From: a virus
Reading direction: 5' to 3' (one strand)
IMG/VR virus record: IMGVR_UViG_3300042007_000202
Location: 44,672 to 108,671 of that record
DNA length: 64,000 nucleotides
Positions within the stretch are counted from its first letter, which is position 1. Every line of letters begins with the position of its first letter. Positions 1,927-62,499 of the stretch are shown here, one piece after another. Below the pieces are notes generated by a model, which made no database searches, was not told where the DNA came from, and saw only the letters and a list, made by a program, of their open reading frames with translations. The position numbers were made by a program, and so were the translations under genes.

Positions 1927-2339
1927 TACTGGTCATCCCCTTCCTTCGTCTGCGCAGATCGCGCGCTGGTGGCCTTCTTCGCGGCCGTCTTCTTGGCCGC
2001 TGCCTTGCGGGCGGCCGTCTTCTTGGCGGCCGGGCGGTGGGCCTTGGGCGCGTCGGGGCCGGGGCCCTCCTCTTCCGGCCCCGACGCGGGCTCGGCAGGC
2101 GCCGCCGCGCGCGGCGCGCTGGGCGCGGGCGCGGGGGGGCTGGGGTCTTCGGGCGGCGGGGCCAGTCCCGCCTGCTCGTAGACGCGGCCGACGGACTCCT
2201 CGGGGACGCGCAGCGCCTGGCTGCCCGCGCCGGACACCGTGGTCACGTACTCGGCCCCGACCACGGCCAGAGCGGCGCGGGCCAGCCGCTCCATGGACAC
2301 GTCCGCTGTGGGGTAGACCAGCGCGTAGTTCGTGGTCAT
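1926..2339 (-). CDS. Small structural-module protein with a histone-like AAKK tail
   Basis: Translationally coupled between neighbours; AAKKTAARKAAAKKTAAKK repeat. Confidence 0.6.
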   Translation of the reverse strand: MTTNYALVYPTADVSMERLARAALAVVGAEYVTTVSGAGSQALRVPEESVGRVYEQAGLAPPPEDPSPPAPAPSAPRAAAPAEPASGPEEEGPGPDAPKAHRPAAKKTAARKAAAKKTAAKKATSARSAQTKEGDDQ

Positions 2340-3178
2340 CAGCCCTCGCCTCCCACGGTCACCAGCACCGCCGCCCGGTAGCAGTCCGCGTCCAGCGCGT
2401 ACGTCCGCTCGGCCAGCGCCATCCGTGTGTTGTCGGAAGTCGTGAAGGTCTCGTTCGCGAAGGCGGCGCCGCGCCAGCCGCGAACCGACCCCGTGGCCAC
2501 CAGCCAGAAGGTGTCTGCGGCGGGCGGGGTGACGGGGTCGAAGGGGTTGTCGGGGTAGCCGCCGCCGAACGCGACCCGCGAGCCCAGGCGGGTGCGGAGG
2601 ACTTCGCCGGTGTCGGCGGCGGGCTGAAGGAGGTTGAGGCTGTCCCAGTAGGTCTGGGTCCAGCGGGGGGCGTGGAAGGTGGGCGCGCCGCCGTAGTTGA
2701 GGGCGGCGTCCTTCTCCAGCACCCCCACGGCCCGCTTGATGCCGACGGCCGCTGCGGCTTCTCCGAGGGGGTAGCGGGGGTCTTCCAGGCCGAGCACGAG
2801 GGCGGCGAACGCCTTCTCCGCCTCACGCTCCTCGATCAGCCCCAGCCGCTCCAAGGCCATGCCGCGCGGGTCTTCGAACCCGACGGCGTTGCATTCGGCG
2901 CGGTTGTAGACGGTGAAGGGGCCGGAGCCTTCGGCCAGTTCGGGCCCGCTGAACACGGTCTTGTCGTGGGTGGTGCCGGGCCCGGGGTCAAGGGGCGCGG
3001 GGCACATGCCCAGGACGTAGCCGCCCTGGGCGCAGTGGTTGGTGAAGTACTCAACTCCGGCGCGCTGCCACGGGCCCTCGCCGTCGGTGATGCTCGCGAC
3101 GGAGAACAGGCCGTAGCGGTACGGCTCCAGGAGGGGAGCGGAGTCCACCCAGGTCTTGCCGGGGGTGGGTGTGGACAC
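2339..3178 (-). CDS. Head-associated/minor capsid protein
   Basis: 279 aa globular ORF directly downstream of the major capsid gene; YGLFSVA and ALAERTYA motifs resemble actinophage head proteins. Confidence 0.55.
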   Translation of the reverse strand: MSTPTPGKTWVDSAPLLEPYRYGLFSVASITDGEGPWQRAGVEYFTNHCAQGGYVLGMCPAPLDPGPGTTHDKTVFSGPELAEGSGPFTVYNRAECNAVGFEDPRGMALERLGLIEEREAEKAFAALVLGLEDPRYPLGEAAAAVGIKRAVGVLEKDAALNYGGAPTFHAPRWTQTYWDSLNLLQPAADTGEVLRTRLGSRVAFGGGYPDNPFDPVTPPAADTFWLVATGSVRGWRGAAFANETFTTSDNTRMALAERTYALDADCYRAAVLVTVGGEG

Positions 3179-3305
3179 GGGGTCTCCGTTGCGTCAGAGG
3201 GCCTGGGAGCGTGGCGGCCGGGGCTCCGGGCATGACTCCGATTCCCCCGGAGCCCCGGCCGCGTTCAGACGGGCGCCCGGCCGGGCGGGCGGGCGGCCGG
3301 GCTCA

Positions 3306-5153
3306 TCAGGAGCAGGTGGTGAGCTGGTGGCTTCCGGAGAGGCCGTTGGCGCAGAGCGGCACCGTGACGACGTAGGACTGGAGGCAGCGGGAGCAGACCT
3401 GCCAGCCTTCCTCGGTGAACAGGGCGGTGTAAACGTTCTGGATCAGCGAGGCGTGGTCGTAGACGCCGTCCAGGTTGATGACGTCGGCCTGGAGCTGGAA
3501 GAAGGTGCCCGCCGGGTAGAGCAGGAACTTGACCTGCTCGGGCCAGGCGGTGGGGATGTCGCCGCCGAAGTCGGTTGCGACGCCCGAGGAGAGGGCGTCC
3601 TGCCAGTCGTAGACGTACTGCGGGGAGACGCCGACCGCGCGGAGGTAGCCGTCGATCATGGCGTCGGAGACGTTCCAGCGGTTGTCGATGCCGAGCTTCT
3701 TGCGCAGGTCGGACTTGAGGATGCCGCGCATCCAGTACGGCGCCACCATCTCCAGCGTGGCGTTCTGCGACAGGCGCCAGTGGTAGCGCTGGTACTGGAC
3801 CTGGAGCTCCAGGATGGACAGCAGGCTCTCGACCGCGCCGGGGCCGTGGCCGTCAGCGATGGGCGCTGCCGGGTTGGGGTCAGCGACGGCCGGGAAGGTG
3901 ACGGCCGTGCTCATGGCCTCCATCTTGGCCAGCTTGCGGGCGTTCATCTTGTGGGCGTGGATGAGCAGCGAGCCCTGGATGAACTGCTCCACGCGCTCGG
4001 GCCAGCCGCGCTCCATCAGGATCGGCGTCCTGATGCACATGCCGCTCACGTCCATGCGGCACTCTTCGAACTCCGGCGGGCAGGGGACCTCGACGCAGGT
4101 CTTCTCGACTCCGGCGATGGCCTGGGTCTCGGTGAGGTAGAAGCCGGTGGAGCCCCAGATGGCGGACCAGTCGAAGTCGGCCGGGTAGCGGATGCCTCCC
4201 CGGCGGGCGGTGACGGAGGGCAGGTCGATCATGCCCTCTTCGGTCATGCGGATGGGGCAGAGGTCGTAGAGCTGCTCGCTGGGGGCGCACCATCCGGCCG
4301 CCGCGACCAGGCTTCCGCCGGGCAGGCGGGACTCGTCGGTGGCGCGGGCGATGACCTCTTCGGCCTGGCTGTCGTCCTGGATGACGAACTCGCTGGAGAC
4401 CTCGCGCTTGATGCGGGCGAGCCCGACGCGGGTGCGTTCGCCGTCGCGGCCGGAGTTGACGTTCCCCGTGATCATGGGGCCCATCCGGTTCTCCCACGCG
4501 CGGGCCACGTCGCCCAGGCCGTTCTCCATGGTCTGGCCGGTGGAGAACTCGGGGACGTCGGCGGCGGCGATGAGGTTGTACCGGGCGAAGGGCTGGGGGC
4601 CGTCGCTCTCCTGCTGGGCGGGGACGGCGCCACGGCGGGTGCCGAGCGGGACGCGGGCGGTGTTCTTCACGTTGGCTGCCACCAGTTCTCGTGCCTGGGC
4701 TCCGGCTCCCTCCTCGGTGTCGTCGTCCGGGGTCTGCCCCGGCGGCTGGTCCTCGGGGGTGTCCTCGGCGTTGTCGTCTTCGGGGGTCGGCTCCGGGTCG
4801 GGGGCCGGTTCGCCGTCGCCTTCGCCGCCGTCGGTGGCCTCGGCTTCCGGCTGCTGGAGTCCGCGCAGGCGTTCTCCGATCTCGGCTGCGCGGGCGGAGC
4901 GCTCGTCCTGCTGGGCGGTGACCACTCCGATGCCGTCGGCGATGCGGGCCAGCGTCTCCAGCTTCTGGAGGGTGTCTTCGCTGGCGGGTCCGGCGTCCTC
5001 GGGGGACAGCTCGTCGTAGAGCGCCAGGACGGCCTGGCTCAGCTCCTGCGGGGTGACCTCGGGGTGCTCGGTGAGGTGCTGCTGGATGACTGCGGGCTGG
5101 TCCTCTGCGGGGACGTCTGCGAGCCGGTTGAGAAGATCGTTGATGAAGCTCAC
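3306..5153 (-). CDS. Major capsid protein with an N-terminal scaffold-like/acidic region
   Basis: GTG at 5153 with GAAAGGG RBS; LVAAAGWCAPSEQLYD, RGGIRYP, YPAGTF and N.YTALFTEEG motifs of actinophage major capsids. Confidence 0.8.
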   Translation of the reverse strand: MSFINDLLNRLADVPAEDQPAVIQQHLTEHPEVTPQELSQAVLALYDELSPEDAGPASEDTLQKLETLARIADGIGVVTAQQDERSARAAEIGERLRGLQQPEAEATDGGEGDGEPAPDPEPTPEDDNAEDTPEDQPPGQTPDDDTEEGAGAQARELVAANVKNTARVPLGTRRGAVPAQQESDGPQPFARYNLIAAADVPEFSTGQTMENGLGDVARAWENRMGPMITGNVNSGRDGERTRVGLARIKREVSSEFVIQDDSQAEEVIARATDESRLPGGSLVAAAGWCAPSEQLYDLCPIRMTEEGMIDLPSVTARRGGIRYPADFDWSAIWGSTGFYLTETQAIAGVEKTCVEVPCPPEFEECRMDVSGMCIRTPILMERGWPERVEQFIQGSLLIHAHKMNARKLAKMEAMSTAVTFPAVADPNPAAPIADGHGPGAVESLLSILELQVQYQRYHWRLSQNATLEMVAPYWMRGILKSDLRKKLGIDNRWNVSDAMIDGYLRAVGVSPQYVYDWQDALSSGVATDFGGDIPTAWPEQVKFLLYPAGTFFQLQADVINLDGVYDHASLIQNVYTALFTEEGWQVCSRCLQSYVVTVPLCANGLSGSHQLTTCS

Positions 5154-5289
5154 GGCGTGGGCACACCCTTTCGGGTATCTCGTTCCGTGCCCTCGGCCCA
5201 TCAACCAGCAGAGCGTCCTACGTAGCGTAGCCGACTGCTCACGCTTCGTGCCCGAGCGGGCGTCCATCCGCGCAGATCAGGTGTCAGAT

Positions 5290-5338
5290 GTGACACGAGA
5301 TTTGCATGCGCGGTCGCACGGTGATAACTTGATGTCTC
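5290..5338 (+). promoter_or_regulatory. Promoter/operator cassette (GTGACAC...TTGCAT-17-TAACTT...ATGTCTC)
   Basis: Sigma70-type -35/-10 hexamers with a 17 bp spacer, bracketed by inverted half-sites; upstream of the 5386 operon. Confidence 0.75.
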
Positions 5339-5385
5339 GCAAGGGGGCTGCGGCCCCCACCACCACCGACCCGGAGGAGCCAGCC

Positions 5386-5808
5386 ATGGCCAGCCCGATC
5401 GCCTCATGGAACGTCACCTACACCGACGCCGAAGGCAAGCGCCACCGCATCACCGGCCTGCCCGACTGGGACACCGCCCGGGAGGAGGCCGCCCGGCTGC
5501 GCGCCACCGGCGCCCGATGGGTCAAGACCCACCCCCACTTCGCCACCCTCCAGGACACCATCGCCTACGCCAGCCGGAACCTGATCCCCAAGGCCGAGGC
5601 GGAGCCGCTGTTCATCACCGAACTGGACGGCCCCACCTTCGCGTCGGCGGAGGAGCTGGACGACTACCGCTGGCGCAACGCCTCCGACGACCGCTCCGAC
5701 TACGACGCGGAGATGGCGTACGAGCGCCACCTGGAGACCAACGACCAGTACCGGTGGGAGCACGAGCAGGACGAACTCCGCGCCGCCGCCTTCGGCTACG
5801 GCTTCTGA
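5386..5808 (+). CDS. Hypothetical early protein
   Basis: GGAGGAG RBS, ATG 5386, typical GC3 codon bias. Confidence 0.7.
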   Translation: MASPIASWNVTYTDAEGKRHRITGLPDWDTAREEAARLRATGARWVKTHPHFATLQDTIAYASRNLIPKAEAEPLFITELDGPTFASAEELDDYRWRNASDDRSDYDAEMAYERHLETNDQYRWEHEQDELRAAAFGYGF

Positions 5809-5869
5809 CCCACCCCCGGGGGCGGCCACCCGGCCGCCCCTCCCCGTCCGCGCAGATAGAGAGGCCGCC

Positions 5870-6280
5870 ATGCCCCAGCGGCGCACCCCCGCGCCCCCGT
5901 CCACCCGCCCGCTCCGCACCGACGACGAACTCCACATCCTGGCCCTGGGTGCTCTGGCCGAACGCCACGGCGCCGGGCCCGACGAGGCCCTGGCCCAGCA
6001 GTACGCCACCGAGTACGACGAGATCATGCGCGCCTTCCGGGGCGCCCGCCGCCAGCGCATGGCGCACCTGTACCCGAACGTCGCCGCGCAGCACCTGGAC
6101 GGCCAGGTGCTCACCGTGCTCAAAGACGACCTGGACGGCGAGAGCACGGCGGACCTGGTCATCACGCTGGTCCATCACCTGGAGATGCTGACCAAGAGCA
6201 CCACCTACGACGACGGACACGCCTTCAAGGTGGCCGCTCTCTGGCGCGAGCTGGCCTTCCGGGGCATCACCCTCACCTGA
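5870..6280 (+). CDS. Hypothetical protein
   Basis: GAGAGG RBS; in operon. Confidence 0.65.
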   Translation: MPQRRTPAPPSTRPLRTDDELHILALGALAERHGAGPDEALAQQYATEYDEIMRAFRGARRQRMAHLYPNVAAQHLDGQVLTVLKDDLDGESTADLVITLVHHLEMLTKSTTYDDGHAFKVAALWRELAFRGITLT

Positions 6281-6305
6281 TCCACGCAGATAGGACACAC
6301 ACCGC

Positions 6306-6806
6306 ATGAGTAACGCAACCTTCCGGCTCGTCTCCGAGCTGCCCGAGGTGGACAACCCCCTCATCAGCAAGCCGGACCACATCGTCAACCCGTTCGCCGG
6401 GCAGGCGCGCAACCCCGGCCACCGCTTCACGCTCCTGCGGGGCGAGGCGCGCTGGGCGTGGGCGCACGTGCTGCGCGCCGTGGGCGGCTGGACCGTGATC
6501 TCCGCTGGCGTCCTGTCCACGTCGGTTTTCCCGACCGCCGACGAGGCCGGGGAGTACCTGGTCCGCCAGTTCCTGGGCGCCAACGGCGACGGCTACGACC
6601 ACCTCTCCCACGAGGCGTACGCCCAGCGGGGGCGCATCGCCCACATCCGGGACGAGGCCGAGCCCCACACCACGTACTGCGGGGAGGCCGCTACCACCCC
6701 GGCGGTGTTCGACCTGGGCGAGCCCAACCACGTGGAGCAGCACTGCATCAAGTGCGACCGGTCCTACCGCGCCACGCACTACGGCCGGATGGCGGTGACC
6801 CACTGA
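6306..6806 (+). CDS. Hypothetical protein with a C-terminal H..C..CxxC Zn motif
   Basis: IAHIRD...TYCGE...HCIKC. Confidence 0.65.
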   Translation: MSNATFRLVSELPEVDNPLISKPDHIVNPFAGQARNPGHRFTLLRGEARWAWAHVLRAVGGWTVISAGVLSTSVFPTADEAGEYLVRQFLGANGDGYDHLSHEAYAQRGRIAHIRDEAEPHTTYCGEAATTPAVFDLGEPNHVEQHCIKCDRSYRATHYGRMAVTH

Positions 6807-7344: not shown

Positions 7345-7356
7345 GCCGCCCGCGAC

Positions 7357-7854: not shown

Positions 7855-8019
7855 CTGTTCCTCCTCCACCGGCCCGCGCCGGACGCTAACGTTGTGTGTG
7901 CAACCGGGCACGGAACGAGACGGCGAGAAGGCGTCCTGTGCGCGGCCTGTCGGGGGGTCCCCCGGGCGTCGCACTGGGCGTCGTGCGAGCAAGCCGGGGG
8001 ACCACCTGATCCGCGTGGA

Positions 8020-8523
8020 TCAGGCAGGGTCGAGCCACTTCACCCGCGTTCGCCCCTCGTGGCCGTTGATGGCCATGGCCTCTTCGATGGACGGCCACTC
8101 CACGATGGAGCGGACTTCGCCCAGCCACATGAGCACCACCCCGCCGTGGGGGAAGACGGCGCCCTCCACGGCGATGCCCGGCCCGCTGGTGCCGGTCTCG
8201 TCCTCGCGGCGGTCGTAGATGAACCGGCGGGGGGCGACCTCGTAGTCCAGCGGCTCACCGATGCTGGTCGCGCACCACCGCAGCTTCCCCCGGCCCCACC
8301 AGTCCTCCATCAGGGCGGCCATGTTGGCGTACCGCTGGCAGGTCTGGCCGGACTGCGACATGACGACGATGCGCCCGTCGGAGAACACCGCGCCGGAGGC
8401 GATGGGGACCTGGTTGCGGTCCAGCATCACGAAGGTGCGCAGGTTGCCCTCGTAGGTGGCGGGGATGAGGTGCCCCTTGTTGATCTCGGCCGGGATGACC
8501 TCATCCTCAGTGTCGACTGGCAT
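8020..8523 (-). CDS. Conserved actinophage hypothetical protein (internally duplicated GAVF.DG domain)
   Basis: Two repeats, IASGAVFSDGRIVV and AVEGAVFPHGGVVL. Confidence 0.6.
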   Translation of the reverse strand: MPVDTEDEVIPAEINKGHLIPATYEGNLRTFVMLDRNQVPIASGAVFSDGRIVVMSQSGQTCQRYANMAALMEDWWGRGKLRWCATSIGEPLDYEVAPRRFIYDRREDETGTSGPGIAVEGAVFPHGGVVLMWLGEVRSIVEWPSIEEAMAINGHEGRTRVKWLDPA

Positions 8524-8760: not shown

Positions 8761-11700
8761 TCAGCTCGCGCGCGCGGCGGCCTTCATCGCCTCCCACTTC
8801 TGGATGGCCGCACAGGCTTCGGCCTTGCTGCCGGGGTTGACCTGCTGGATGCCGGGCCAGTTCAGGTCGCCGGAGGCGCACATCTTCTTCGCGGCGTTGA
8901 CCCCGGTGGCGATGGCCCGGCTGGTGTCCATGCCCTTGCTCTTGAGGTGGTCAGCGATCCGCTTGATGTACGGCGGCAGCCCGCCTTGCTGGTCGACCCA
9001 GTTCTTCGCCAGGGCGATGTCCTGGTTGCTCGGGGTGGGCAGGCCGCCGAACCCGGCCAGGGGCATGGGCACTTCGGTCTTGCGCTGGGGCTGGAGGCCG
9101 CTGATGCGCTTCCTGGCGAGGGCTGTGCGGCGGGCCAGGTCGGTGGCGCGGCGCTGGCTGGCGGTCTCCCTGAAGGCGGCCATGCGCTCTTCCAGGGAAG
9201 CGGCGCGCTGGCGGCGGGCGGCGCGGCCTTCCAGCTCATCCGCGACGGCCGCCGCCAGGTGCACCGGCTCCGCCTGGCGCAGCTCGAACGCCTGGAGGCC
9301 GCTGGCCTGGGCGGCGGGCTGGCTGTCGGGGGCGGAGGGCGGGGTGGCCTCTTCCTCCTTGGGCCAGAACCCGGCCGCGACGAGGGAGAAGAACGAGCCG
9401 TCGGGGCCGGTCTTCTTCGCGGCGAGGGGGAAGCCGGGGCTGTTGACCGCCAGCGCGGCGATCAGCTCGGCGCCGCCCCGGACCTCGCGCCAGTCCCCGG
9501 AGAACGAGGCGAGGGAGAGGCGGAGGCGGTCTTCCTGGCTGACGAAGGGGAGCACTGCCCCGGCGACCCAGATGCCGTGGGCGTCTTCACCGACGCGGAC
9601 CACGGCGGCCTGGGTGCCGGTGTGGTCGTAGTGGGACATGGCGCCGGTCGCGCTGGCTGTCAGCTTGGCGTGGCCGGTGTTCATGGTGATCAGGCCGCAG
9701 CGGACCGTGCCTGTGCTGGTGCGGACGGGGCGCAGGTTGTAGTAGGCGTAGCCGGAGGCGGAGTGCGGCGGGGGGACGCAGCGGTCCTTGAAGCCGACGT
9801 GGCAGGAGCCCCAGGCGGCGAGGTAGCCGGATACCTGCCCGGTCTCTACATCCACGCGGATGGAGTGGGCGCCGGAGCTGCCGTCGGGCTGCTCGAACCA
9901 CTCGCCGGGCGGGGTCCAGCCGGGGGCGAAGGTCTCTGTGGTGGCGGAGGCGGTGATGGCGACGGCCTGGCACGGCTCGCATCCGGCCGGAGGCTCGGAC
10001 GCCTCGGCCTCCTGCACGATGGACTCGGCCTCGTCCACCACGGCGGCGGCGGCCTCGGTCTCCGGCGCCCCGGCTGCTGTGATCTTGTCCCACGGGGTGG
10101 CCTTGACCTCCTCGCGCAGGGCGCCCATGTCCGCCAGTCCGGCCGGGTCCCACCACGCGACGACCTCAATACTGTCGCCGTCGGGGTCGTCCGGGTTCAG
10201 GACGGTGCGGTCGTCGGGGTCGGGGTTGATGCCGACGCCGCTCTCCTCCGGCACCAGCAGCAGGAAGCCCTGGTACACGCCGTTGTCGCTGGTCCAGGTG
10301 TCCACGATCTCGCCCTGGCCGCGCATGTCGCAGCCGGTCTCCTCGCAGAACTCCCGGAAGGCGGCGTCCTCGGCGGTCTCGCCCTCCTCGATGCCGCCGC
10401 CCGGCCACTCCCACATGCCGGAGGCGGGGTCTTCGTCGTCCAGGGCGCGCTGGATCAGCAGCACGCGGCCGGTGTCCTGTGCCTTGACCGCCAGCCCGGC
10501 GTGCGTGGGGGTGGATGCCGGGCTGGCGGGGTCTTCGTCCTCCGCGAGACGCGTGACGCCCATCTGCGCGGATGGGGTGACGTCGTCGGGGGTGGAGGGG
10601 CGGGCGCCGGGGGCGTCGCAGGGGGCGGGCTCCCATCCGGTGCCGTCCTCGGTCGGCGCGACGCACTCCCCCGTCACGACAGGGGTTTCAGGGTCAAGCT
10701 CTTCAGCGGCCTGCTCGTCGTCTGCGGCGATGTCCTGGGGGACATCCCCCGCCTCGGCCTCCTCGTCATCCTCAGTGGCCGTCTGGGAGTCCTCAGCCGG
10801 TACCGCCTCTTCCTCCGGCTCCACGGGTGCTTCGCCCTGGGCCTGTTCCGGCTCGAACGGGCCGTCGCCGGTGGGGTTCGCCGGGACCGCTTCGGGGTCT
10901 TCGCAGTCAGCCGCCATCCACGCGCCGATCTCGTCCTGCTTCACGCAGCCCCAGGCCGGGTCGTAGCCCACGATCTCCGAGAACGCCGCAGCGGTGAGGG
11001 CCTGGCCGTCCGCGTCCGCGAGAGCGATGGCCGCGTTGGGGAAGGCCGGGTGGGCCAGGAGGGTGGCGCCCATAATGCGCCAGCCGTCGTAGACGTCGCC
11101 GACCATGAGGGAGCGGTCGTTGGGGTCGCCGTCCGGCACGATGGTGCCGTCTTCCCTGAGGAGCACCTGGTGGGCGCTGGCGTCGTCCACGTCCAGACTG
11201 ACGAAGCGGACGAAGCCCAGGCCGACCTTGCGGGCCAGGTCGCGCCCGACCGGGTCCTCCATGTCGAAGCGGCCCTCGCCCCACACCTGGCTCCCTTCGG
11301 TCCAGATGCGGTCGATGACGCCGACGCCGAGTTCGGAGCCGTCGTGGCCCTTGGCCAGGGTGCCCTGGACGAGGAGCGGCAGCGGAAGGGGGCGGGAGCG
11401 GACGCCGCCCTCGGGGGTGGCGAGCATTCGCTGATCCGCGGACCACTCGTCCATGAAGCCCAGGACGCCGCGCCACCGGCCGCTGGGCTCCACGGTCACG
11501 GGTCCTGTCTCGGTGACGGTGGGCGTGGTCATGGACTCCTCCTGTGGTGCTGAGGCGGCGGTGAGGGCGGGGTCCCCGGCGGGGCCGTAGCGGGCGGAGC
11601 AGCGGCAGTTGATGACTTCGCCTGCGGGGCCGAGGGGGTCGCCGGGGAACTGGAGGCGGTGGCCGCCGATCTCGAACGGCTCGGTCAGGGGGCGGACTTG

Positions 11701-12339
11701 GCCGTCGGCGTTGAGGTGGGTCTCGCGTACGCGCTGGTCGTGGGTGCATTGCCAGCGCTTCTCCCACGGCTGGCCGGTGCGCTCCTGTTCCGCGAGCGCG
11801 CCGTGCGCGGCGCCCGCGTTGAGGGCCGTCATGGTCTCGGTGCGGGTCATGGTCATGATCTGGCCGTCCCACTCCTCCAGCGTCATCAGCGCGGACAGGC
11901 GTTCCTTGAGCTGGGCGGGGGATTCGCCGCTCGGCCGGTGCAGGATGGCGCGCAGCAGCCGGTCAGCGAAGGCGCGCCGGAACCCGGCGAGGCGGTCGCC
12001 CAGGCCTTCGCCGTGGCCTTGGTCGTCGTCGGGGGCGTCGTCGGGGCGGCCGGTGATCCGTCCGAAGCTGCCGCGCCACAGGGCGCGGGTGGGGCCGAGG
12101 ACGAAGCGGTTCAGGATGCGCCGCCAGGTCGCCTCTGACGGCACGCCCGGCGGGTGGCCGGGCTCGGGCTCGGCGGCGGCTGTCAGGGCCTCCAGAGAGC
12201 CGCCCAGCGGTCCCTTGCGGGCTTCCGCGAGGAAGGCTTCCACGGCGTCCCGGATGGCGGGGTAGAGCTGGGCTTCGGCCCGGCGGATGTAGGTGTAGTC
12301 CTTCATCCGCTCGGACAGCCACGGGTCAGGCATGGGCAA
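8761..12339 (-). CDS. MuF (minor head) - putative maturation protease - Nudix hydrolase multidomain protein
   Basis: MuF motifs TRTE...KRW...D.RVRETH...FPGDP.GP..EVINCRCS; Nudix box GGGIEEGETAEDAAFREFCEETG; lies between portal and capsid. Confidence 0.75.
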   Translation of the reverse strand: MPMPDPWLSERMKDYTYIRRAEAQLYPAIRDAVEAFLAEARKGPLGGSLEALTAAAEPEPGHPPGVPSEATWRRILNRFVLGPTRALWRGSFGRITGRPDDAPDDDQGHGEGLGDRLAGFRRAFADRLLRAILHRPSGESPAQLKERLSALMTLEEWDGQIMTMTRTETMTALNAGAAHGALAEQERTGQPWEKRWQCTHDQRVRETHLNADGQVRPLTEPFEIGGHRLQFPGDPLGPAGEVINCRCSARYGPAGDPALTAASAPQEESMTTPTVTETGPVTVEPSGRWRGVLGFMDEWSADQRMLATPEGGVRSRPLPLPLLVQGTLAKGHDGSELGVGVIDRIWTEGSQVWGEGRFDMEDPVGRDLARKVGLGFVRFVSLDVDDASAHQVLLREDGTIVPDGDPNDRSLMVGDVYDGWRIMGATLLAHPAFPNAAIALADADGQALTAAAFSEIVGYDPAWGCVKQDEIGAWMAADCEDPEAVPANPTGDGPFEPEQAQGEAPVEPEEEAVPAEDSQTATEDDEEAEAGDVPQDIAADDEQAAEELDPETPVVTGECVAPTEDGTGWEPAPCDAPGARPSTPDDVTPSAQMGVTRLAEDEDPASPASTPTHAGLAVKAQDTGRVLLIQRALDDEDPASGMWEWPGGGIEEGETAEDAAFREFCEETGCDMRGQGEIVDTWTSDNGVYQGFLLLVPEESGVGINPDPDDRTVLNPDDPDGDSIEVVAWWDPAGLADMGALREEVKATPWDKITAAGAPETEAAAAVVDEAESIVQEAEASEPPAGCEPCQAVAITASATTETFAPGWTPPGEWFEQPDGSSGAHSIRVDVETGQVSGYLAAWGSCHVGFKDRCVPPPHSASGYAYYNLRPVRTSTGTVRCGLITMNTGHAKLTASATGAMSHYDHTGTQAAVVRVGEDAHGIWVAGAVLPFVSQEDRLRLSLASFSGDWREVRGGAELIAALAVNSPGFPLAAKKTGPDGSFFSLVAAGFWPKEEEATPPSAPDSQPAAQASGLQAFELRQAEPVHLAAAVADELEGRAARRQRAASLEERMAAFRETASQRRATDLARRTALARKRISGLQPQRKTEVPMPLAGFGGLPTPSNQDIALAKNWVDQQGGLPPYIKRIADHLKSKGMDTSRAIATGVNAAKKMCASGDLNWPGIQQVNPGSKAEACAAIQKWEAMKAAARAS

Positions 12340-48880: not shown

Positions 48881-48923
48881 GATCAAGGGCGGCGGAGCGC
48901 AGGTGGGAGAGGGCGTGTGAACG

Positions 48924-49963: not shown

Positions 49964-49973
49964 CGATCCACGC

Positions 49974-50014
49974 GGAAGGGCCCGCCGCCCCGACCCGGGG
50001 CGGCGGGCCCTTCC
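49974..50014 (+). terminator. Hairpin after the rep genes
   Basis: GGAAGGGCCCGCCGCCCCG/CGGGGCGGCGGGCCCTTCC. Confidence 0.75.
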
Positions 50015-50472: not shown

Positions 50473-50717
50473 TGCGCCCCGAGGCCGCTGACGTACTAGC
50501 CAGGCTCCGCCGGTCCATCCTCCGGGGAGACTGGCCGGTCGGCTGCCGCGCGCCCGCCCTGGCCGAGCTGGTGAGCGTGCACGGCCTCAACCGGTCACAG
50601 GCGTCCCTGGTCCTGAGCGCGCTCGCGAAGGAGGGGCTGATCGTCCGGGCGCGCGGCATCGGCCCCACCGTGGTGTACGAGCCTGAGCAGCCCTCGAAGG
50701 ACCGGCCGGAGCCGTGA
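50472..50717 (+). CDS. GntR-type wHTH protein
   Basis: LRRSIL.GDWPVG.R.P...EL....G.NR......L..LAKEGLI..ARG.G..V. Confidence 0.7.
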   Translation: MRPEAADVLARLRRSILRGDWPVGCRAPALAELVSVHGLNRSQASLVLSALAKEGLIVRARGIGPTVVYEPEQPSKDRPEP

Positions 50718-51188: not shown

Positions 51189-51725
51189 TCAGTGCTTGCA
51201 CCCGGCGGCGCACCAGCCGCCCGCCTTGCGGACGGCGCGCTCGTCCACCAGTCGGGCCACCGTGTACGCGGTGCCCGTGTTCACGCAGATCAGGGCGTAC
51301 TGACCGTCGCGGCGCCCGACCTGCGCCGCCTGGCGCGGCTTGTCGTACAGCAGCTCCCAGCCCTTGGCGGCCGACTCGCCCAGGCCCGCCCGGCGCGCGG
51401 CCTTGCGCGGCGCCTTGCGGGGGGCGGCCTCCACGCGGGCGGCCGTCTTGGCGGCCAGCGCGGCCAGCGCGGCGGCCACGCCGGTCAGGGCCTCCGCGCG
51501 CTCCTCGGCCGCGAGAACGGCCTCCACCTCGGCCTGGTCGGCCACCGGCAGCGCCTCGGCCACGGCGGTGTGGCTCACCCGGCCGGTCGCCTGAGTGGTG
51601 ACCAGGACCACCAGGCCCGTGGCGGCGGCGCGGCGGTCGGCCTCGCGCTTGGCGGCGGCCAGGTTGGCGTAGGACTTGGCGGCGAACTCGGCGGCGGCGG
51701 AGACGGTGTAGCGGGTGGCGGCCAT
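51189..51725 (-). CDS. WELLYDKP-domain protein A
   Basis: AAGGAG RBS; Ala-rich N-terminus plus the conserved C-terminal domain. Confidence 0.8.
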   Translation of the reverse strand: MAATRYTVSAAAEFAAKSYANLAAAKREADRRAAATGLVVLVTTQATGRVSHTAVAEALPVADQAEVEAVLAAEERAEALTGVAAALAALAAKTAARVEAAPRKAPRKAARRAGLGESAAKGWELLYDKPRQAAQVGRRDGQYALICVNTGTAYTVARLVDERAVRKAGGWCAAGCKH

Positions 51726-51774: not shown

Positions 51775-51840
51775 GTGACACCAGTATTGCATACGCCACT
51801 CAGGGAATGCAAATCTCGTGTCTCATCAATCCACGGGGAT
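51775..51840 (-). promoter_or_regulatory. Promoter cassette plus 12-bp palindrome
   Basis: GTGACAC...GTGTCTC (50 bp), 4 bp, ATCCACGGGGAT. Confidence 0.75.
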
Positions 51841-52515: not shown

Positions 52516-52565
52516 GTGACACCAGTATTGCATACATCGCTCACGGAGTGCAAATGTCGTGTCAC
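52516..52565 (-). promoter_or_regulatory. Promoter cassette
   Basis: GTGACAC...GTGTCAC 50 bp. Confidence 0.75.
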
Positions 52566-52606
52566 CCGGCCGGGCGGGCGGGTGGCCGCCCGCCCGGCCG
52601 GTCCGC

Positions 52607-52996
52607 TCAGTAGCGGCGCGGGGGGCGGACCCTGGCGGCGCCGCTGGCCCGGCGCGCGGCTCGCCGGGCGCGGGCCTCCTCCAGTTCCCTGGCCTGGAAG
52701 GCGCGGCCCGCCTCGATCACCCCGGCGGGCGCCTTGACGATCTCGCCGCCGTTCCGGCCGACCTCCGCCAGGGCGCTCAGCGCGCTCCAGTGGCCGCTCC
52801 GGCGGCCGTAGCGGTCGACGGTGACGATGGGCGCCACTCCCGCGCCCCTGCTGGCGAGGAGTTCCCGGTAGAGCTCCGAGCCCTGCTCGCAGTAGCGGCC
52901 GGTCTCCCCGGAGGTGGAGCAGACCCGGCAGGCGGCGGCGTGCTCGCGGTGGGCGACCTCGGCGGGGTTGAGGACCTCGTGGGTGTTGGCGGCCAT
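52607..52996 (-). CDS. Cassette gene (H..C..C..C motif, no WELLYDKP domain)
   Basis: AAGGAG RBS; HAAACRVC...YC. Confidence 0.65.
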   Translation of the reverse strand: MAANTHEVLNPAEVAHREHAAACRVCSTSGETGRYCEQGSELYRELLASRGAGVAPIVTVDRYGRRSGHWSALSALAEVGRNGGEIVKAPAGVIEAGRAFQARELEEARARRAARRASGAARVRPPRRY

Positions 52997-53038: not shown

Positions 53039-53104
53039 GTGACACCAGTATTGCATACGCCGTTCAAGCAATGCAAATCTCGTGTCTCATCAATCCACGG
53101 GGAT
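53039..53104 (-). promoter_or_regulatory. Promoter cassette plus 12-bp palindrome
   Basis: Near-identical to the 51775 cassette. Confidence 0.75.
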
Positions 53105-53254: not shown

Positions 53255-53734
53255 TCAGCCCTCGCTGTGGGCGCAGCCCTCGCACCAGGCCGCCTTGCCC
53301 GCCCGGCGCAGCTCGCGCTCATCGACCAGCTTCTCCAGCGGCCGGGCGTACTTGTGCTCGGTGCAGATCAGCGCGTAGCTCTTGTCGCGGCGCCCGACCT
53401 GGGTGGCCGTGCGCGGCTTGTCGTACAGCAGCTCCCAGCCGGTCACGGCCGACTGGCCGTCCGTCAGGCGCCGCGCCCGGTCGGTGTTCATGATCCGCTC
53501 CCGGTCCGCCTCGGCCGCCTCCTGGGCGGCGTCGAAGACCTCCTGGAGGGCCGCGCACGCCTTGCAGATGGTGTTCGCCTGGAGCTGGCGGACGACCGGC
53601 GCCAGCGTGAACTCCGCGCCGCACAGGTTGCCGGTGCCGACCCAGAGGTGGGTGACCTTGGCGGTGCGGGAGGAGACCGTCAGGGCGGTGTAGGTGGACG
53701 GGGCGATGACGGCGGAAGCGGTCTTGCGGGCCAT
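53255..53734 (-). CDS. WELLYDKP-domain protein D
   Basis: GAGGAG RBS; N-terminal THL..LCG..ICKAC plus the conserved C-terminal domain. Confidence 0.8.
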   Translation of the reverse strand: MARKTASAVIAPSTYTALTVSSRTAKVTHLWVGTGNLCGAEFTLAPVVRQLQANTICKACAALQEVFDAAQEAAEADRERIMNTDRARRLTDGQSAVTGWELLYDKPRTATQVGRRDKSYALICTEHKYARPLEKLVDERELRRAGKAAWCEGCAHSEG

Positions 53735-53782: not shown

Positions 53783-53848
53783 GTGACATCAGTATTGCAT
53801 ACGCCGTTCGGGGAACGCAAATCTCATGTCTCATCAATCTGCGGGGAT
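53783..53848 (-). promoter_or_regulatory. Promoter cassette plus 12-bp palindrome
   Basis: GTGACAT...ATGTCTC, 4 bp, ATCTGCGGGGAT. Confidence 0.75.
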
Positions 53849-54041: not shown

Positions 54042-54419
54042 ATGAACACGCGCTACCCGCGCGCCGTCGACCTGGCGCAGATCCCCCACTGCTCCGTCTG
54101 CGGCGAGACGAACCCCATCACCGACGAAGAGGGCGGCACCGCATGCTGCGGGCGGCGGGAGTGCGGCGGCGTGGGGCCCGAGGCCCAGGACGTGTGCTGC
54201 CAGGCACTCCAGGACCGCGTGGACCACGAGTCCGCGCACGGAACGCCCGCCTCCCCGCTGTCGGCCGCGCGGCCGGTGGCGGCAGCCCCCCGGCGAGCGC
54301 GAACCCGATCCACGCGGATCAAAGAGACACGAGACTTGCTGACGCTGAGTGACGTATGCAAAAGTGATGTCACACCGGGGGACGGACAGCCCCCCACCAC
54401 CGAGCCGAAGGAGGCCCCG
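54042..54419 (+). CDS. Cys-rich cassette ORF without a stop codon, reading in frame into protein F
   Basis: GAGGA RBS, ATG 54042; CSVC...CC...C...CC. Confidence 0.5.
54308..54373 (+). promoter_or_regulatory. 12-bp palindrome plus promoter cassette
   Basis: ATCCACGCGGAT-4-GAGACAC...ATGTCAC. Confidence 0.7.
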
Positions 54420-55073
54420 ATGGCCCTCTCCACCACCGCCGCCACCAGCGCCGTCTGCCGCAACCTCTTCAAGGACGGCCCGAACTCCTTCGAGCCCGTC
54501 GGCGGAACCTTCGGCACGGACCGCGAGATCTACGAGAGCCTGGCCAAGGCATACCTCAAGGACAAGACCGACCTGAGCGGCAGCACGATCGAGGCCGCCG
54601 ACTGGGACGAGGTGTTCGCCACCTTCCAGCCCGACCCGGCCCCCGCCGCCGAGGCCGCCCCGCAGCTCGCCGCCGGTTCCCGCGTCACCACCACCGGCCA
54701 GCCCGCGCTCACCCCGACCGGTTACGTCGTCTCGGTCCAGTACGACCCCCCGTTCGCCCACCTGGCGGCGTCCGGCGGCGCGGACCACCTCGTCCGCGAC
54801 CTGGCCCCGGCCCCCGCCGAAGCGGCCACCCCGGCCCCGGCCCCGGCGCCCGCCCCCAAGGGCGCCAGGAAGCCCCTGGGGGACGCCAGCGCGCCCGGCT
54901 GGGAGCTGCTGTACGACAAGCCCAAGGCGGGCGCCGAGGTGGGGCGCCGGTACGTGGACGGCAAGCCCCAGTTCTCCCTGATCTGCAAGGCCCACGGTCA
55001 CGTGCACAAGCTGGACCGCCTGAGCGATGAGGGCAAGGTCCGCAAGGCCGGTGGCTGGTGCCCCTCCTGCTGA
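54420..55073 (+). CDS. WELLYDKP-domain protein F
   Basis: AAGGAGG RBS; unique N-terminal domains, PA linker, conserved C-terminal domain. Confidence 0.8.
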   Translation: MALSTTAATSAVCRNLFKDGPNSFEPVGGTFGTDREIYESLAKAYLKDKTDLSGSTIEAADWDEVFATFQPDPAPAAEAAPQLAAGSRVTTTGQPALTPTGYVVSVQYDPPFAHLAASGGADHLVRDLAPAPAEAATPAPAPAPAPKGARKPLGDASAPGWELLYDKPKAGAEVGRRYVDGKPQFSLICKAHGHVHKLDRLSDEGKVRKAGGWCPSC

Positions 55074-55109: not shown

Positions 55110-55159
55110 GTGACACGAGATTTGCATTCGGCTCACGGCTGATGCTAATCTCGTGTCAC
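55110..55159 (+). promoter_or_regulatory. Promoter cassette (most symmetric copy)
   Basis: GTGACACGAGATTTGCA-16-TGCTAATCTCGTGTCAC, a 17-bp inverted repeat with one mismatch. Confidence 0.8.
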
Positions 55160-55728: not shown

Positions 55729-55777
55729 GTGACACGAGGTTTGCAAACGGTGAACCGTGGTGCTAATCTGGTGTCAC
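55729..55777 (+). promoter_or_regulatory. Promoter cassette
   Basis: GTGACACgaggtTTGCAA-17-TAATCTgGTGTCAC. Confidence 0.8.
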
Positions 55778-56646: not shown

Positions 56647-57016
56647 CGGCCGCCTCCTTCTCCCGGGCTACGCACCGGCGGCACCTGGTGAGCAGCCACG
56701 CTGTGTCGGCCGGGTCCACCGCCATGTCCTCCGGCAGCAGCCACTCCTCGCAGCACGCCGACAGCTTGGCGCCAGAGCGCGCCAGCGACATGGCATACGC
56801 TGCCGCGCCGGGGCCCGAGCGCACATCGAACCGTCGCCCGGCCAGCGGTTCCGGCTGCACCGGGTGCGCCACGGACCACGTGTGCACCGCCTTCGCGAAC
56901 TCCGCCGGGTGCAGCTCCTCCAGGCCCGGCCGCTCCGGGTCCAGGCCGTGCGCCTGCGCCACGGCCAGCGCCGCATGCGCGTCCGCCCGGCGCCGCCGCG
57001 CGTCCCAGTCAGTCAC
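56639..57016 (-). CDS. Hypothetical Cys-containing protein
   Basis: GTGA coupling. Confidence 0.45.
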   Translation of the reverse strand: MTDWDARRRRADAHAALAVAQAHGLDPERPGLEELHPAEFAKAVHTWSVAHPVQPEPLAGRRFDVRSGPGAAAYAMSLARSGAKLSACCEEWLLPEDMAVDPADTAWLLTRCRRCVAREKEAAGD

Positions 57017-57396
57017 AGCATCCTCCGCCAGTCTCGCTTCGGGGCCGGGCGGCCCTTGGCGCCGCCGTACAGGCGCACCCGGGCCTCCTGCTCCTCTGTC
57101 AGCAGCCTGCACGGCAGCTCCCTGACACCCTGGTCCCAGGCGCGCCACACGCGATGCCAGCCGTCGATAACGAGCGCCGAGCCGACCTCCTTGACGTAGG
57201 CCAGCAGGACCGGCTCGGCCAGGTCGACCGTCGCCGCGTGCGCCTCATCCACGCGGATAAAGGGCAGGAGCTGGAGCGCCGACCGCACTTCGAACGTCCG
57301 CACCGGCTCACTGGCCGCCTCGCGCGCGGCGGCCGTCACGTCCCACGTGTAGGACAGGAACGTGAAGGTGTCCCGGGCGTGGCCGTCACTCGTCAT
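57013..57396 (-). CDS. Small ParB/Srx-like protein
   Basis: DLAEPVLL...LVIDGWHRVWRA...G..ELP. Confidence 0.6.
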   Translation of the reverse strand: MTSDGHARDTFTFLSYTWDVTAAAREAASEPVRTFEVRSALQLLPFIRVDEAHAATVDLAEPVLLAYVKEVGSALVIDGWHRVWRAWDQGVRELPCRLLTEEQEARVRLYGGAKGRPAPKRDWRRML

Positions 57397-57691
57397 CGTC
57401 GCCTCCAGGGTCCATGGCGATCTGCCGACCCCACGCCGCAATGACCGCCCCCACCGCCCGCGTCTCGTCCGCGCACACGTCGATGCGCGGCCAGCCGTCC
57501 CCGGTGCCGTGGGCCGAAACGGCGTCGCCCAGGGGGGCGATGTAACCCACGTGCACCGGCTCGCCGTTGGCGAGCTGGCACGTCACCCAGCGCTTGCCGT
57601 CCGGTCCCGGCAGCGTCTCCGCCGCGAAGGTGATCTGCACCGCGTTCATCAGGTCAGCCGCCACTGCCGCCCCCTCGCTCCTTCTGCTCAC
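57386..57691 (-). CDS. Hypothetical protein
   Basis: Coupling. Confidence 0.5.
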   Translation of the reverse strand: MSRRSEGAAVAADLMNAVQITFAAETLPGPDGKRWVTCQLANGEPVHVGYIAPLGDAVSAHGTGDGWPRIDVCADETRAVGAVIAAWGRQIAMDPGGDDDE

Positions 57692-57775
57692 CCATCCACG
57701 CGGATACGTAAGCCTGTCCCGCGTCCCGCGTGGGGGCCGGGGTCGCCGCCCGGCCCCCCTGCGCGTTCCCCATTC

Positions 57776-61577: not shown

Positions 61578-61617
61578 TGAGCCCCCAGTCGCGAAGGCCG
61601 ACGCGACTGGGGGCTCA
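61578..61617 (-). terminator. Hairpin
   Basis: TGAGCCCCCAGTCGCG/CGCGACTGGGGGCTCA. Confidence 0.7.
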
Positions 61618-61676
61618 AGGGCCGCCCGGCGGCAGCGGGAACTGCGACGCGCACCCCCGCCGGACGGAGCCCTACG

Positions 61677-61985
61677 CTATCCGCTCTCGGGCCGCAGGGC
61701 GGCCACCAGCGAGCGGATGTGCGCCTTCACGTCGGCCAGCTCCGCGAACGACGCGATCGGCGGGGGCGGCGCCTCGCCCCTGGGGACCTCGGGCACCTCG
61801 CGGTAGAGGTGCCAGGTGTGGTGCTCCCGGTACCACCACGGCGCGAACTCGCCCCTGCTGGCCCGTGGTTTGGCCGCCCACTGGATCACCCCCCAGCGCC
61901 GCTGGTCACCGGTGGCGGACAGCTCGAACCGCTGCCCCGCCCCAGCCCGCCGGGCCTCGATCTCGATCTCCTGCTCCTCAGGCAC
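61677..61985 (-). CDS. Hypothetical protein
   Basis: Coupling. Confidence 0.5.
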   Translation of the reverse strand: MPEEQEIEIEARRAGAGQRFELSATGDQRRWGVIQWAAKPRASRGEFAPWWYREHHTWHLYREVPEVPRGEAPPPPIASFAELADVKAHIRSLVAALRPESG

Positions 61986-62499
61986 CGCTCACGTCCTCCG
62001 CCCGGTCGCTCACCTGGTCCATGCGCGCCTGGGTGGCCTGGGCCAGCGCCCGCTGGATCTGCTCCACCACCGCGCGGTGCCCGCCCGGAACCGGCGGCGC
62101 CACGGCGTGAGACTCCCACACCGGGAGCAGCTCCATCGCCCGGCCGACCGCCGTCATGGCCATGGTCAGCGTCCCCAGCAGCACCGTGTCCGGCGGCAGG
62201 AACTCCGCCCTGCGGCCGTGCAGGGCGTAGTCCCTGGCGCTGGTCCACTCCTCGGTCCCGTTGGCGATGTCCGCCACGATGGCCGCCGCCGCCAATCCAC
62301 GCAGATAGCCGACGAGCATGAACTCCACGCTCCCCGGCCGGGCGTACGGCTGCGGCGTGCCCAGGTCCGCCAGCGACTCCAGCGCTGACAGCACCAGCGT
62401 GTACGCCGTGGTCGTGGGCTGGTCCACCAGCTCCAGCGCCAGCGCGTGGCCGGGCCCCGACTTGAGCGGGCGCGAGTCGTTCCAGTCCAGCATGATCAT
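61978..62499 (-). CDS. Hypothetical protein
   Basis: GAGG RBS. Confidence 0.5.
   Translation of the reverse strand: MIMLDWNDSRPLKSGPGHALALELVDQPTTTAYTLVLSALESLADLGTPQPYARPGSVEFMLVGYLRGLAAAAIVADIANGTEEWTSARDYALHGRRAEFLPPDTVLLGTLTMAMTAVGRAMELLPVWESHAVAPPVPGGHRAVVEQIQRALAQATQARMDQVSDRAEDVSGA

Follow-up and report, generated by a model that had tools for sequence, protein, structure and literature searches.

The DNA considered here (the window, 64,000 nucleotides) comprises bases 44,672-108,671 of a 108,671-bp IMG/VR virus record, IMGVR_UViG_3300042007_000202 (G000; CheckV 99% complete, ~72% G+C), and carries many copies of a short palindrome, ATCYRCGYRGAT, in and between its genes. This palindrome is the subject of the present analysis. 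Most proteins of G000 are left unnamed by Pfam and PHROGs. Among the genes that could be related to known families are those of a minus-strand operon headed by a DUF932 gene, which also encodes a 447-amino-acid (aa) protein with a ParB/Srx-fold domain, a small ParA ATPase and a 177-aa ribbon-helix-helix (RHH)-like protein (Table 1). Elsewhere, a ParB-N-like gene (24921-25748) heads a TET/glycosyltransferase/terminase block. The gene calls were made with a codon-bias model and are uncurated, so that gene ends may be misplaced by a few codons.

At the DNA level the search returned no cultured phage close to G000, and its large terminase (TerL) is at most 48% identical to those of Gordonia phages and Saccharomonospora phage PIS 136. 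Related genomes were located via the terminase. An IMG/VR contig of 111,261 bp (G001) is collinear with G000, 75-87% identical over ~80% of it and circularly permuted, while a contig of Streptomyces andamanensis PCU 347 (NZ_JBHSDP010000011.1, 106,095 bp; G006) is entirely collinear at 65-84% identity and also permuted. Related fragments are present in Streptomyces sp. NPDC051907 (G007), homologues of one phage protein are encoded by other contigs of phage size (99-115 kb) in Streptomyces isolate assemblies, among them S. longwoodensis (109,842 bp), Streptomyces sp. NPDC059278 (103,011 bp) and contigs of 114,657, 104,532 and 98,884 bp, and a related circular 103.5-kb Streptomyces "plasmid", pSITFR-21c (NZ_CP134608.1), carries a terminase. 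The three full genomes compared (G000, G001 and G006) are circular permutations of one another; together with the whole phage-sized contigs, this is more consistent with a phage-plasmid or with circular permutation of the genome than with an integrated prophage. Moreover, G000 encodes ParA and a tyrosine recombinase. The phage-sized contigs, the terminase-bearing plasmid, ParA and the recombinase therefore suggest a temperate phage that is carried as a plasmid, and G000 and its relatives appear to form a so far uncharacterised lineage of ~106-111-kb Streptomyces phages living in this way.

Abundance and specificity of the palindrome

Exact copies of ATCYRCGYRGAT number 20 in the window, where dinucleotide shuffles give an expectation of 0.05 (maximum 1). 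With at most one mismatch there are 41 copies against 1.13 expected and with at most two mismatches 73 against 17.4, while the whole record holds 30 exact copies and 63 with at most one mismatch. The motif is a 12-bp dyad composed of the half-sites ATCC(G/A)C and G(C/T)GGAT and it carries three CpGs; variants of the 12-mer include ATCCGCGCGGAT, ATCCACGCAGAT and ATCCCCGTGGAT. The dyad is sometimes widened to 18 bp, as in the perfect palindrome CTGATCCGCGCGGATCAG at bases 1484-1501 of the whole record (outside the window). The first-pass annotation of this DNA had listed 20 exact positions, all of which were reproduced, and its figure of about 38 copies and its expectation of far fewer than one exact copy by chance agree with the counts above. 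Its near matches are likewise all present, with one to be moved from 39736 to 39735 and six to be added (23578, 30682, 34394, 43013, 50149 and 63683). It had also placed copies both just upstream of the next ribosome-binding site (RBS) and within coding sequence, correctly in both cases, and had proposed a count against codon-preserving controls and the host chromosome as a check.

Copies lying wholly within called genes number 12 in G000 and 20 in G001, as compared with 0.03 and 0.04, respectively, in codon-order shuffles and 0.26 and 0.17 when synonymous codons are resampled with the proteins held fixed. This ~50-fold excess over the synonymous-codon controls means that the coding copies are made by codon choice and not by the proteins. 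Chance and codon usage as the source of the motif are thus ruled out by the dinucleotide, codon-order and synonymous-codon controls. A host regulon motif is ruled out as well, since the host chromosome has a chance number of copies: in the S. andamanensis assembly 23 copies are on the 106-kb phage contig and six in the other ~8.8 Mb, for which ~7 are predicted by extrapolation from the shuffle rate in the window, and two further Streptomyces genomes have one and five copies.

The motif is confined to a narrow set of relatives. G001 has 41 exact copies and a 52-kb relative (G003) three, and TerL relatives at 65-72% identity have none or one; pSITFR-21c has no copy. A scan of IMG/VR with the extended 18-mer matched G001 only, and a scan with a 14-mer gave single chance matches. 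A literature search for the motif strings returned primers and unrelated oligonucleotides only. The palindrome is a real, strongly selected and phage-lineage-specific DNA element, and as such it offers a simple marker for relatives of this phage in Streptomyces assemblies.

pSITFR-21c has repeats of its own. The sequence TGTCCGGACA is present in 12 exact copies (0.24 expected), in clustered iteron-like arrays and not at junctions between genes, and was therefore rejected as a parallel case. Six copies of TAGTG-N6-CACTA adjoin gene starts in the same plasmid.

Copies at gene junctions and promoters

The exact copies in the whole record are concentrated where one gene ends and the next begins. 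Non-coding sequence and positions at most 20 nt from a gene end make up 16.6% of the genome and hold 21 of the 30 exact copies (p=1e-10). In eight of the 30, and in 11 of the 63 copies with at most one mismatch, the last A of the upstream TGA stop codon is the first A of the motif. The junction copies finish 3-30 nt before the next start codon, often running straight into AGGA or GAGG, and in the direction of transcription they read c-T-G-ATCCRCGCRGAT and then purines. At the two variable steps the sense strand has G or A and almost never T. Hence the pattern ATCYRCGYRGAT given in the first-pass annotation holds for the motif as a whole, while the junction copies do not vary freely within it but follow ATCCRCGCRGAT on the sense strand. 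Departures of only the A type outnumber those of only the T type at junctions by 16:2 in G000 and 19:3 in G001 (p about 1e-3 each), as compared with 4:5 and 3:6 within genes. Where 2 kb of plus-strand genes interrupt a minus-strand region, the orientation of the copies is reversed as well, which shows that orientation follows transcription and not replication.

To assess conservation, each exact copy was mapped onto G001. All 16 alignable copies at junctions or promoters are still exact there, in line with the conservation in related phages that had been put forward as a test, and the motif is found in three related Streptomyces phage genomes. Across the mapped junction and promoter copies the identity between G000 and G001 is 0.96 within the motif and 0.77 in the flanking 60 nt; every change is at one of the four degenerate transition positions, and the substitutions at junctions are G/A exchanges on the sense strand. 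Under neutral drift at 77% identity a given copy would be retained roughly one time in ten. Copies deep in genes behave differently: one of eight is exact in G001 and five of eight are within one mismatch, although the number of in-gene copies is far above the codon controls in every genome. The junction copies are fixed in place, whereas the coding copies turn over with their number maintained. Judged from these alignments, the copies at gene junctions and beside promoters are under strong purifying selection. A symmetric dimer would tolerate both types of change, as is the case in the coding copies, and something strand-specific has therefore been added at the junctions. This superimposed constraint points to an orientation-dependent effect on RNA polymerase or to a constraint on the mRNA beside the RBS.

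The second of these possibilities raises the question of whether the element acts in the mRNA, as the site of a regulator of translation or of an endoribonuclease that would process polycistronic transcripts just 5′ of each Shine-Dalgarno sequence. The start-associated sequence (SAS) of Cluster K phages, an asymmetric 13-mer that contains the Shine-Dalgarno sequence, is found only at non-structural genes and is 3-7 bp away from the start codon, would be the precedent (PMC3203893). Like SAS and its extended form (ESAS), the present element is a short repeat that the host lacks and that is placed close to start codons, within a few bases and mostly with one orientation. The directional ATCCRCGCRGAT on the sense strand abuts AGGAG or GAGG 3-30 nt from the start codon, the upstream stop codon is sometimes within the repeat, as it is for SAS (PMC3203893), and some copies read GATAGGAG, which overlaps the SAS core. 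However, the sequence forms a dyad in DNA, including perfect palindromes of 12 and 18 bp, which would be of no use in a loop-less RNA, and it lies 5′ of the Shine-Dalgarno sequence in structural and non-structural regions alike. In addition, the copies within genes occur in both orientations and are still ~50-fold over-represented, other copies are upstream of -35 elements at a fixed distance or follow terminator-like hairpins, and no Rfam family was matched at the gathering threshold in the window. We consider it improbable that the junction copies act as such an mRNA element.

Copies are found on either side of GC-rich terminator-like hairpins, and one copy forms the centre of such a hairpin. 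The record has a family of GC-rich hairpins built on GCCCGCCCGGCCGGGCGGGC (e.g., 20663-20700, 36915-36942, 45297-45320 and 52566-52601), which resembles terminator-like punctuation without T-tracts and of which some members are inside genes. The palindrome CCCGGCCGGG is present in 39, 34 and 28 copies in G000, G001 and G006, respectively.

The -35 elements referred to above are part of a promoter cassette, of which there are ~25 copies in the whole record. It consists of GACACGAGATTTGCA, 17 nt, a TAATCT-like -10 box and a closing inverted arm, ATCTCGTGTC, and is often separated from the RBS by a conserved leader hairpin, GGGGGGC...GCCCCCC, with ACCACC. Its arms contain GACAC, which we take to be the WhiA target motif of Streptomyces, and the cassette looks like a second regulon with a dyad operator of its own. 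Between 51189 and 55682 small divergent genes each have their own cassette, most of them with an upstream copy of the palindrome; several of their products match one ~70-aa segment in G003, which indicates a shared domain.

The distance between palindrome and cassette is fixed. In the three genomes the motif is exactly 6 nt upstream of the cassette in 5/8, 7/8 and 3/4 cases, mostly as the variant ATCCCCGTGGAT with its centre near -57. The promoter of the DUF932/ParB-Srx/ParA/RHH operon is bracketed by two copies, 69 bp apart in G000, G001 and G006; the downstream one is a perfect palindrome 13 nt past the -10 box, at about +7 to +19. In G003 two motif-like sites are positioned at the promoter of DUF932, ParB/Srx-like and RHH genes, with ParA absent, and the NPDC051907 fragment has one copy at the equivalent DUF932 promoter. 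From this arrangement, the bracketed operon appears to be autoregulated by one of its own products.

Could the copies instead be promoters, or promoter-proximal activator sites, for phage-specific middle or late transcription with short RBS-containing leaders? Their orientation follows the downstream gene, several are situated between a terminator-like hairpin and an RBS with no other visible promoter, and a position near -57 at the cassettes would suit a class I activator. On the other hand, palindromy, in-gene copies in both orientations and a copy at +7 to +19 are unexpected of a promoter element. Moreover, sigma-70 region 2 (PF04542) was not detected in the whole record, and no RNA polymerase family was found among the seven largest unknown proteins scanned. 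This explanation appears very unlikely.

Candidate binding proteins and the role of the sites

Since the host chromosome has copies at chance level only, the protein that binds the palindrome is most likely encoded by the phage. The DNA-binding candidates in G000 are the 177-aa protein with its RHH-like C-terminal domain, the 447-aa ParB/Srx-fold protein, two further ParB/Srx-like proteins, two XRE-family helix-turn-helix (HTH) proteins (26886-27161 and 27311-27586), a GntR-type winged HTH (wHTH) protein (50472-50717), MarR/RepL-like wHTH proteins, a 250-aa multi-HTH protein and an 83-aa wHTH protein. The last of these (44286-44537) is an unlikely binder, as it is without a counterpart in the S. 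andamanensis element, which keeps the motif. A repressor of the L5/R4 type was also rejected: phmmer searches with L5 gp71 and R4 gp52/gp47 against the three proteomes gave no match at E<=10, and tblastn gave chance-level matches only. From the layout of the promoter, the binder is most likely a product of the bracketed operon, that is, the RHH protein (35640-36173) or the ParB/Srx-fold protein (36968-38311).

For the 447-aa protein, the AlphaFold model (predicted local distance difference test, pLDDT, of 84) contains a ParB/Srx N-domain fold at residues 165-261, which aligns with KorB (Z 6.8; root-mean-square deviation 2.7 over 88 residues), ParB (Z 6.6) and Noc (Z 5.8) and also with PadC. 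The best Foldseek match is the pNOB8 ParB-N domain (E 6e-4). Its invariant motif is NGQHRL and not GERRxR, which is closer to the DGQHR/Srx types, and the helical domain at residues 264-414 gave no ParB HTH match, although this domain was not searched on its own. In the RHH-like protein the model has an extended segment and two helices (pLDDT 68). Its ribbon reads KLTVQ in three motif-rich genomes, KLTAN in a fourth, KLTCA in G003, which has few sites, and KTSVD in G002, where ParA and a homologue of the 447-aa protein are encoded yet no motif within one mismatch is present in 21 kb. That the ribbon residues track the presence of the motif across five genomes is suggestive only.

With moderate confidence, we propose that a dimeric protein encoded by the phage recognises the palindrome as its operator and, through sequence-specific binding to DNA, acts on transcription across the whole genome, both at promoters and as a roadblock between genes. 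The first-pass annotation had likewise suggested a dimeric protein, which fits an element that is palindromic, phage-specific, conserved at junctions and fixed in position beside promoters. At the ~7 promoters that have a copy 6 nt upstream of the cassette, the bound protein would regulate initiation and probably its own synthesis too; at the DUF932 operon the second copy, at about +7 to +19, would join in the control of initiation. At the ~20 to 30 junctions between a stop codon and an RBS, the bound protein would be a roadblock to elongating host RNA polymerase, and such roadblocks would silence each downstream gene during prophage carriage in the manner of L5/R4 stoperators. The same sites may also serve partition of the plasmid-prophage, the binder being a product of the par operon.

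Several observations weigh against this proposal. The directional junction copies are not explained by a symmetric dimer alone, and many of them abut the Shine-Dalgarno sequence, which would also suit a role in the mRNA. The poor positional conservation of the in-gene copies suits a density-dependent role (partition, condensation or marking) as well as it suits roadblocks. As to the binder, only the N-domain of the ParB/Srx-fold protein was matched, with modest Z values of about 6-7 and its HTH part unmatched; the RHH assignment is weak (profile of the RHH antitoxin Rv0298, E 0.0056; Pfam RHH_1, E 0.07 in one of six members), and Foldseek with the small RHH model gave no match. The covariation of the ribbon is drawn from five genomes that differ in everything else. 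In addition, the gene assignments derive from our own codon-bias calls and can err by a few codons near gene ends.

The closest parallels in layout and, probably, in logic are the repressor-stoperator systems of L5 and R4. The stoperators of Cluster A mycobacteriophages such as L5 have an orientation-dependent effect on RNA polymerase (PMC9283540), and R4 stoperators are known from Streptomyces phages (PMC10276819). Tens of sites of the 12-13-bp class over the whole genome that are rare in the host (here 30 exact and 63 near copies in 108.7 kb), their placement at promoters and in short intergenic spaces, an orientation that follows transcription and a temperate lifestyle (putative in our case) are common to these systems and the one described here. 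However, the L5 site is asymmetric and bound by a two-domain monomer, whereas the dyad of the present site implies a dimer. Furthermore, there is no relative of gp71 or gp52/gp47 in the three proteomes searched, many copies are within genes, the stop codon is frequently supplied by a copy and the RBS directly adjoined by it, and the phage, at ~108 kb, is probably plasmid-borne. With its symmetric site and with that repressor family absent, the motif system is outside the L5 repressor family. Of the three roles that had been suggested for the palindrome, stoperator-like roadblocks therefore fit the layout best, while the kinship with L5 does not extend to the repressor or to the form of the site.

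The conserved inverted repeats (CIRs) of the Streptomyces phage phiC31 appear to be close as well. Ingham et al. reportedly described them in 1994 as operators of the c repressor in many intergenic regions. They resemble the present sites in being palindromic, repeated between genes and beside a family of near-identical promoters, and differ in having another sequence of 17 bp; the binder in our case is a candidate only. To our knowledge, the overlap with the stop codon, the sense-strand bias and the copies within genes have not been described for CIRs.

A different reading is that the copies are primarily dispersed centromere-like or loading sites for partition of a phage-plasmid, by ParA with the RHH protein and/or the ParB/Srx protein, and that any effect on transcription is secondary. 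It would liken them to the dispersed centromeres of N15, to parS or Noc sites inside genes and to the OB sites of KorB, all of them short palindromes dispersed over a replicon, near to and far from promoters and in part within genes. ParA, the RHH-like and the ParB/Srx-fold proteins are encoded in one operon with its promoter bracketed by copies, the replicon behaves as if free (phage-sized contigs in isolate assemblies and three circular permutations), and the in-gene copies are kept in number and not in place, as expected if density matters. KorB provides a precedent (PMC11790492). Both systems combine the gene of a ParB/Srx-fold protein with that of a ParA partner, and a single protein may perform both partition and global silencing. 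The likeness has limits: only the N-domain fold is supported here (Z about 6-7), with NGQHRL and not GERRxR, and neither junction placement nor directionality is a feature of OB sites or parS. RK2 has 12 OB sites, as compared with 60 or more sites here.

Partition alone, moreover, fails to predict the 20-fold enrichment between stop codons and RBSs, the positional conservation of 16/16 copies, the directionality and the fixed 6-nt spacing from promoters. The gene order, a clear small ParA and then a weakly assigned RHH protein, recalls type Ib partition, the centromeres of which are normally clustered repeats beside the operon. No repeat array near the par genes was found between 34000 and 41600, where nothing but the pair of copies at the operon promoter stands out; lack of a separate array would also suit partition through the dispersed copies. 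The CTPase motifs of the 447-aa protein and its DNA-binding HTH are putative only. The earlier suggestion of centromere sites for the ParA/RHH pair thus gains indirect support from the bracketed promoter and from the ribbon residues in five genomes, and it lacks the clustered array. Partition as the primary function is, in our judgement, unlikely, and it is compatible with the operator proposal. A scenario that joins the two can be outlined speculatively, and we regard it as rather doubtful: a single par-operon protein (RHH or ParB/Srx-fold) would act at ~60 palindromes in both segregation and gene-by-gene silencing of the prophage, fusing KorB-like control with stoperator-like roadblocks at a site that doubles as a stop codon and is shaped by its mRNA.

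The least probable of the explanations considered is that the palindromes are targets of a site-specific DNA modification, by the block of TET/JBP, glycosyltransferase and ParB-like genes, or boundaries of gene-cassette recombination. TET/JBP and ParB-like proteins are encoded, the motif has three CpGs and some accessory genes are flanked by copies (959, 1487 and 1822 in the whole record; 5266-6291 in the window). However, C5-methyltransferase (PF00145) was not detected in the whole record. The earlier proposal of a ParB-TET modification system at these sites gained no support: the dioxygenase is present, but the phage has no such enzyme to make 5-methylcytosine (5mC) at the CpGs. A 12-bp target in ~60 copies is, in addition, unlike known phage hypermodification. 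With regard to recombination, the flanks share no extended homology except for the RBS, hairpins and promoter cassette, and the copies were rejected as cassette boundaries, because 10% of the homology breakpoints between G000 and G001 are within 40 nt of a copy, as compared with 13% of ordinary gene boundaries. The TET/JBP dioxygenase gene itself (22101-23042; Pfam E 8e-21) is part of a block, 20996-25748, with ParB-N-like and small-terminase-like genes. As a C5-cytosine methyltransferase is missing from the record, its substrate may be thymine or host-made 5mC.

Returning to the operator proposal, the palindromes constitute a clean regulon, in which about 60 sites share a sharp consensus and show orthologous conservation. 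If the roadblocks are real, genome-wide stoperator silencing arose with a different protein and a symmetric site, and as a strategy it would be more general among the temperate phages of actinobacteria. If the binder is a partition protein, silencing of the prophage would be tied to segregation of the plasmid. The pair of operator and protein could become an orthogonal repression tool in Streptomyces.

Coordinates and neighbouring regions

Table 1. Copies of the palindrome, promoter cassettes and genes of the DUF932 operon (window coordinates)
Feature	Position	Strand	Context and conservation
Exact copy, ATCCGCGCAGAT	5266-5277	+	Divergent intergenic; 14 nt upstream of cassette driving rightward gene 5386-5808; exact in G001
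One-mismatch copy, GTCCGCGCAGAT	5846-5857	+	After GC hairpin; 12 nt before ATG of gene 5870-6280
Exact junction copy	6280-6291	+	First A ends TGA of gene 5870-6280; AGGA directly after; ATG of 6306-6806 14 nt downstream
Exact junction copy, extended palindrome ctgATCCACGCGGATcag (sense)	8009-8020	-	Supplies TGA of gene 8020-8523; identical in G001, flanks 78%
Exact copy	9850-9861	.	In 1190-aa head polyprotein gene (8761-12333, minus); one mismatch in G001, exact in G006
Exact copy	10562-10573	.	In the same head polyprotein gene; lost by indel in G001; ATCTGCGCAGAT in G006
Exact copy	15384-15395	.	In called plus open reading frame (ORF) 15094-15564 (uncertain call, minus-strand block); minus-strand reading ctgATCCACGCGGAT; two mismatches in G001
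Exact junction copy	16703-16714	-	30 nt upstream of start of gene 16346-16672; exact in G001
Exact copy, centre of G/C hairpin 20304-20337	20315-20326	+	Between ORF 20348-20608 and large terminase gene; one of few anti-orientation junction copies
Exact copy	20484-20495	.	In 86-aa ORF 20348-20608
Exact junction copy	21613-21624	-	Last codons of gene 21598-22104; 14 nt upstream of small-terminase-like gene 20996-21598; exact in G001
One-mismatch copy, sense ATCCACGGAGAT	25752-25763	-	3 nt upstream of ATG of ParB-N-like gene 24921-25748; unchanged in G001
Exact junction copy, sense ctgATCCACGCAGATagga	29162-29173	-	11 nt upstream of start of gene 28869-29150; identical in G001
Exact copy	35071-35082	.	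Near 3′ end of gene 35020-35637; 37 nt before gene 34245-35033; three mismatches in G001, one in G006
Perfect palindrome, ATCCGCGCGGAT	41195-41206	.	13 nt downstream of -10-like TAATAT of DUF932-operon promoter; identical in G001
Exact copy	41264-41275	-	6 nt upstream of DUF932-operon promoter cassette, centre near -57; identical in G001
One-mismatch copy	45284-45295	-	After GC hairpin; 8 nt upstream of ATG of gene 44802-45275; exact copy in G001
Exact junction copy, then RBS-like GAGAGAGGA	45691-45702	-	20 nt upstream of GTG of gene 45332-45670; identical in G001 and G006
Exact junction copy	46871-46882	-	Last codons of gene 46868-47749; 15 nt upstream of gene 45719-46855; exact in G001 and G006
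One-mismatch copy	49966-49977	+	Directly past stop of MarR/RepL-like gene 49523-49963; overlaps terminator-like hairpin with 19-bp stem
One-mismatch copy, sense ATCCCCGTGGAT	51829-51840	-	6 nt upstream of cassette of leftward gene 51189-51725; conserved in G001
One-mismatch copy, sense ATCCCCGTGGAT	53093-53104	-	6 nt upstream of cassette of leftward gene 52607-52996
One-mismatch copy, sense ATCCCCGCAGAT	53837-53848	-	6 nt upstream of cassette of leftward gene 53255-53734
Exact copy	54308-54319	+	6 nt upstream of rightward cassette; called gene 54042-55073 probably begins too early; exact in G001
Exact copy	57247-57258	.	In 127-aa gene 57013-57396 (product with ParB/Srx-like DGxHR motif); one mismatch in G001
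Exact junction copy, anti orientation	57694-57705	+	After hairpin; 29 nt upstream of start of gene 57386-57664; identical in G001
Exact copy	62295-62306	.	In gene 61978-62493; one mismatch in G001, exact in G006
14 more one-mismatch copies	Starts 1948, 16652, 23578, 25476, 30682, 34394, 39735, 42293, 43013, 43723, 47160, 50149, 61342, 63683		In genes; those at 42293, 43723 and 16652 exact in G001
Promoter cassettes	5292-5340, 41243-41257, 47813-47827, 51808-51822, 52549-52563, 53072-53086, 53816-53830, 54326-54340, 55112-55126, 55731-55745, 62873-62947, others
177-aa RHH-like protein	35640-36173	-	Directly after ParA; C-terminal ribbon-helix-helix-like domain, ribbon KLTVQV
Small ParA/MinD-type ATPase, 234 aa	36188-36892	-	In DUF932 operon; CbiA 7e-14, MipZ 3e-13
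447-aa protein	36968-38311	-	ParB/Srx-fold domain (residues 165-261, NGQHRL) and helical C-terminal domain
DUF932 gene	40087-41145	-	First in bracketed operon

Two further regions of the window are noted here. The hairpin AAGGGGGGCTGTAGCCCCCCTT is present twice, along with a CG-alternating hairpin, in a gene-free stretch of 906 bp (48111-49016). This stretch is directly upstream of two MarR/RepL-like wHTH genes (49017-49963), the ends of the G001 assembly map to it, and it is a possible replication origin or initiator region. The other region, 25888-27161, comprises an XRE-family HTH gene (26886-27161) and a gene for a 333-aa protein (25888-26889), both of which are missing from G001; the two genes resemble an accessory module that was inserted upstream of the ParB-like/TET block.

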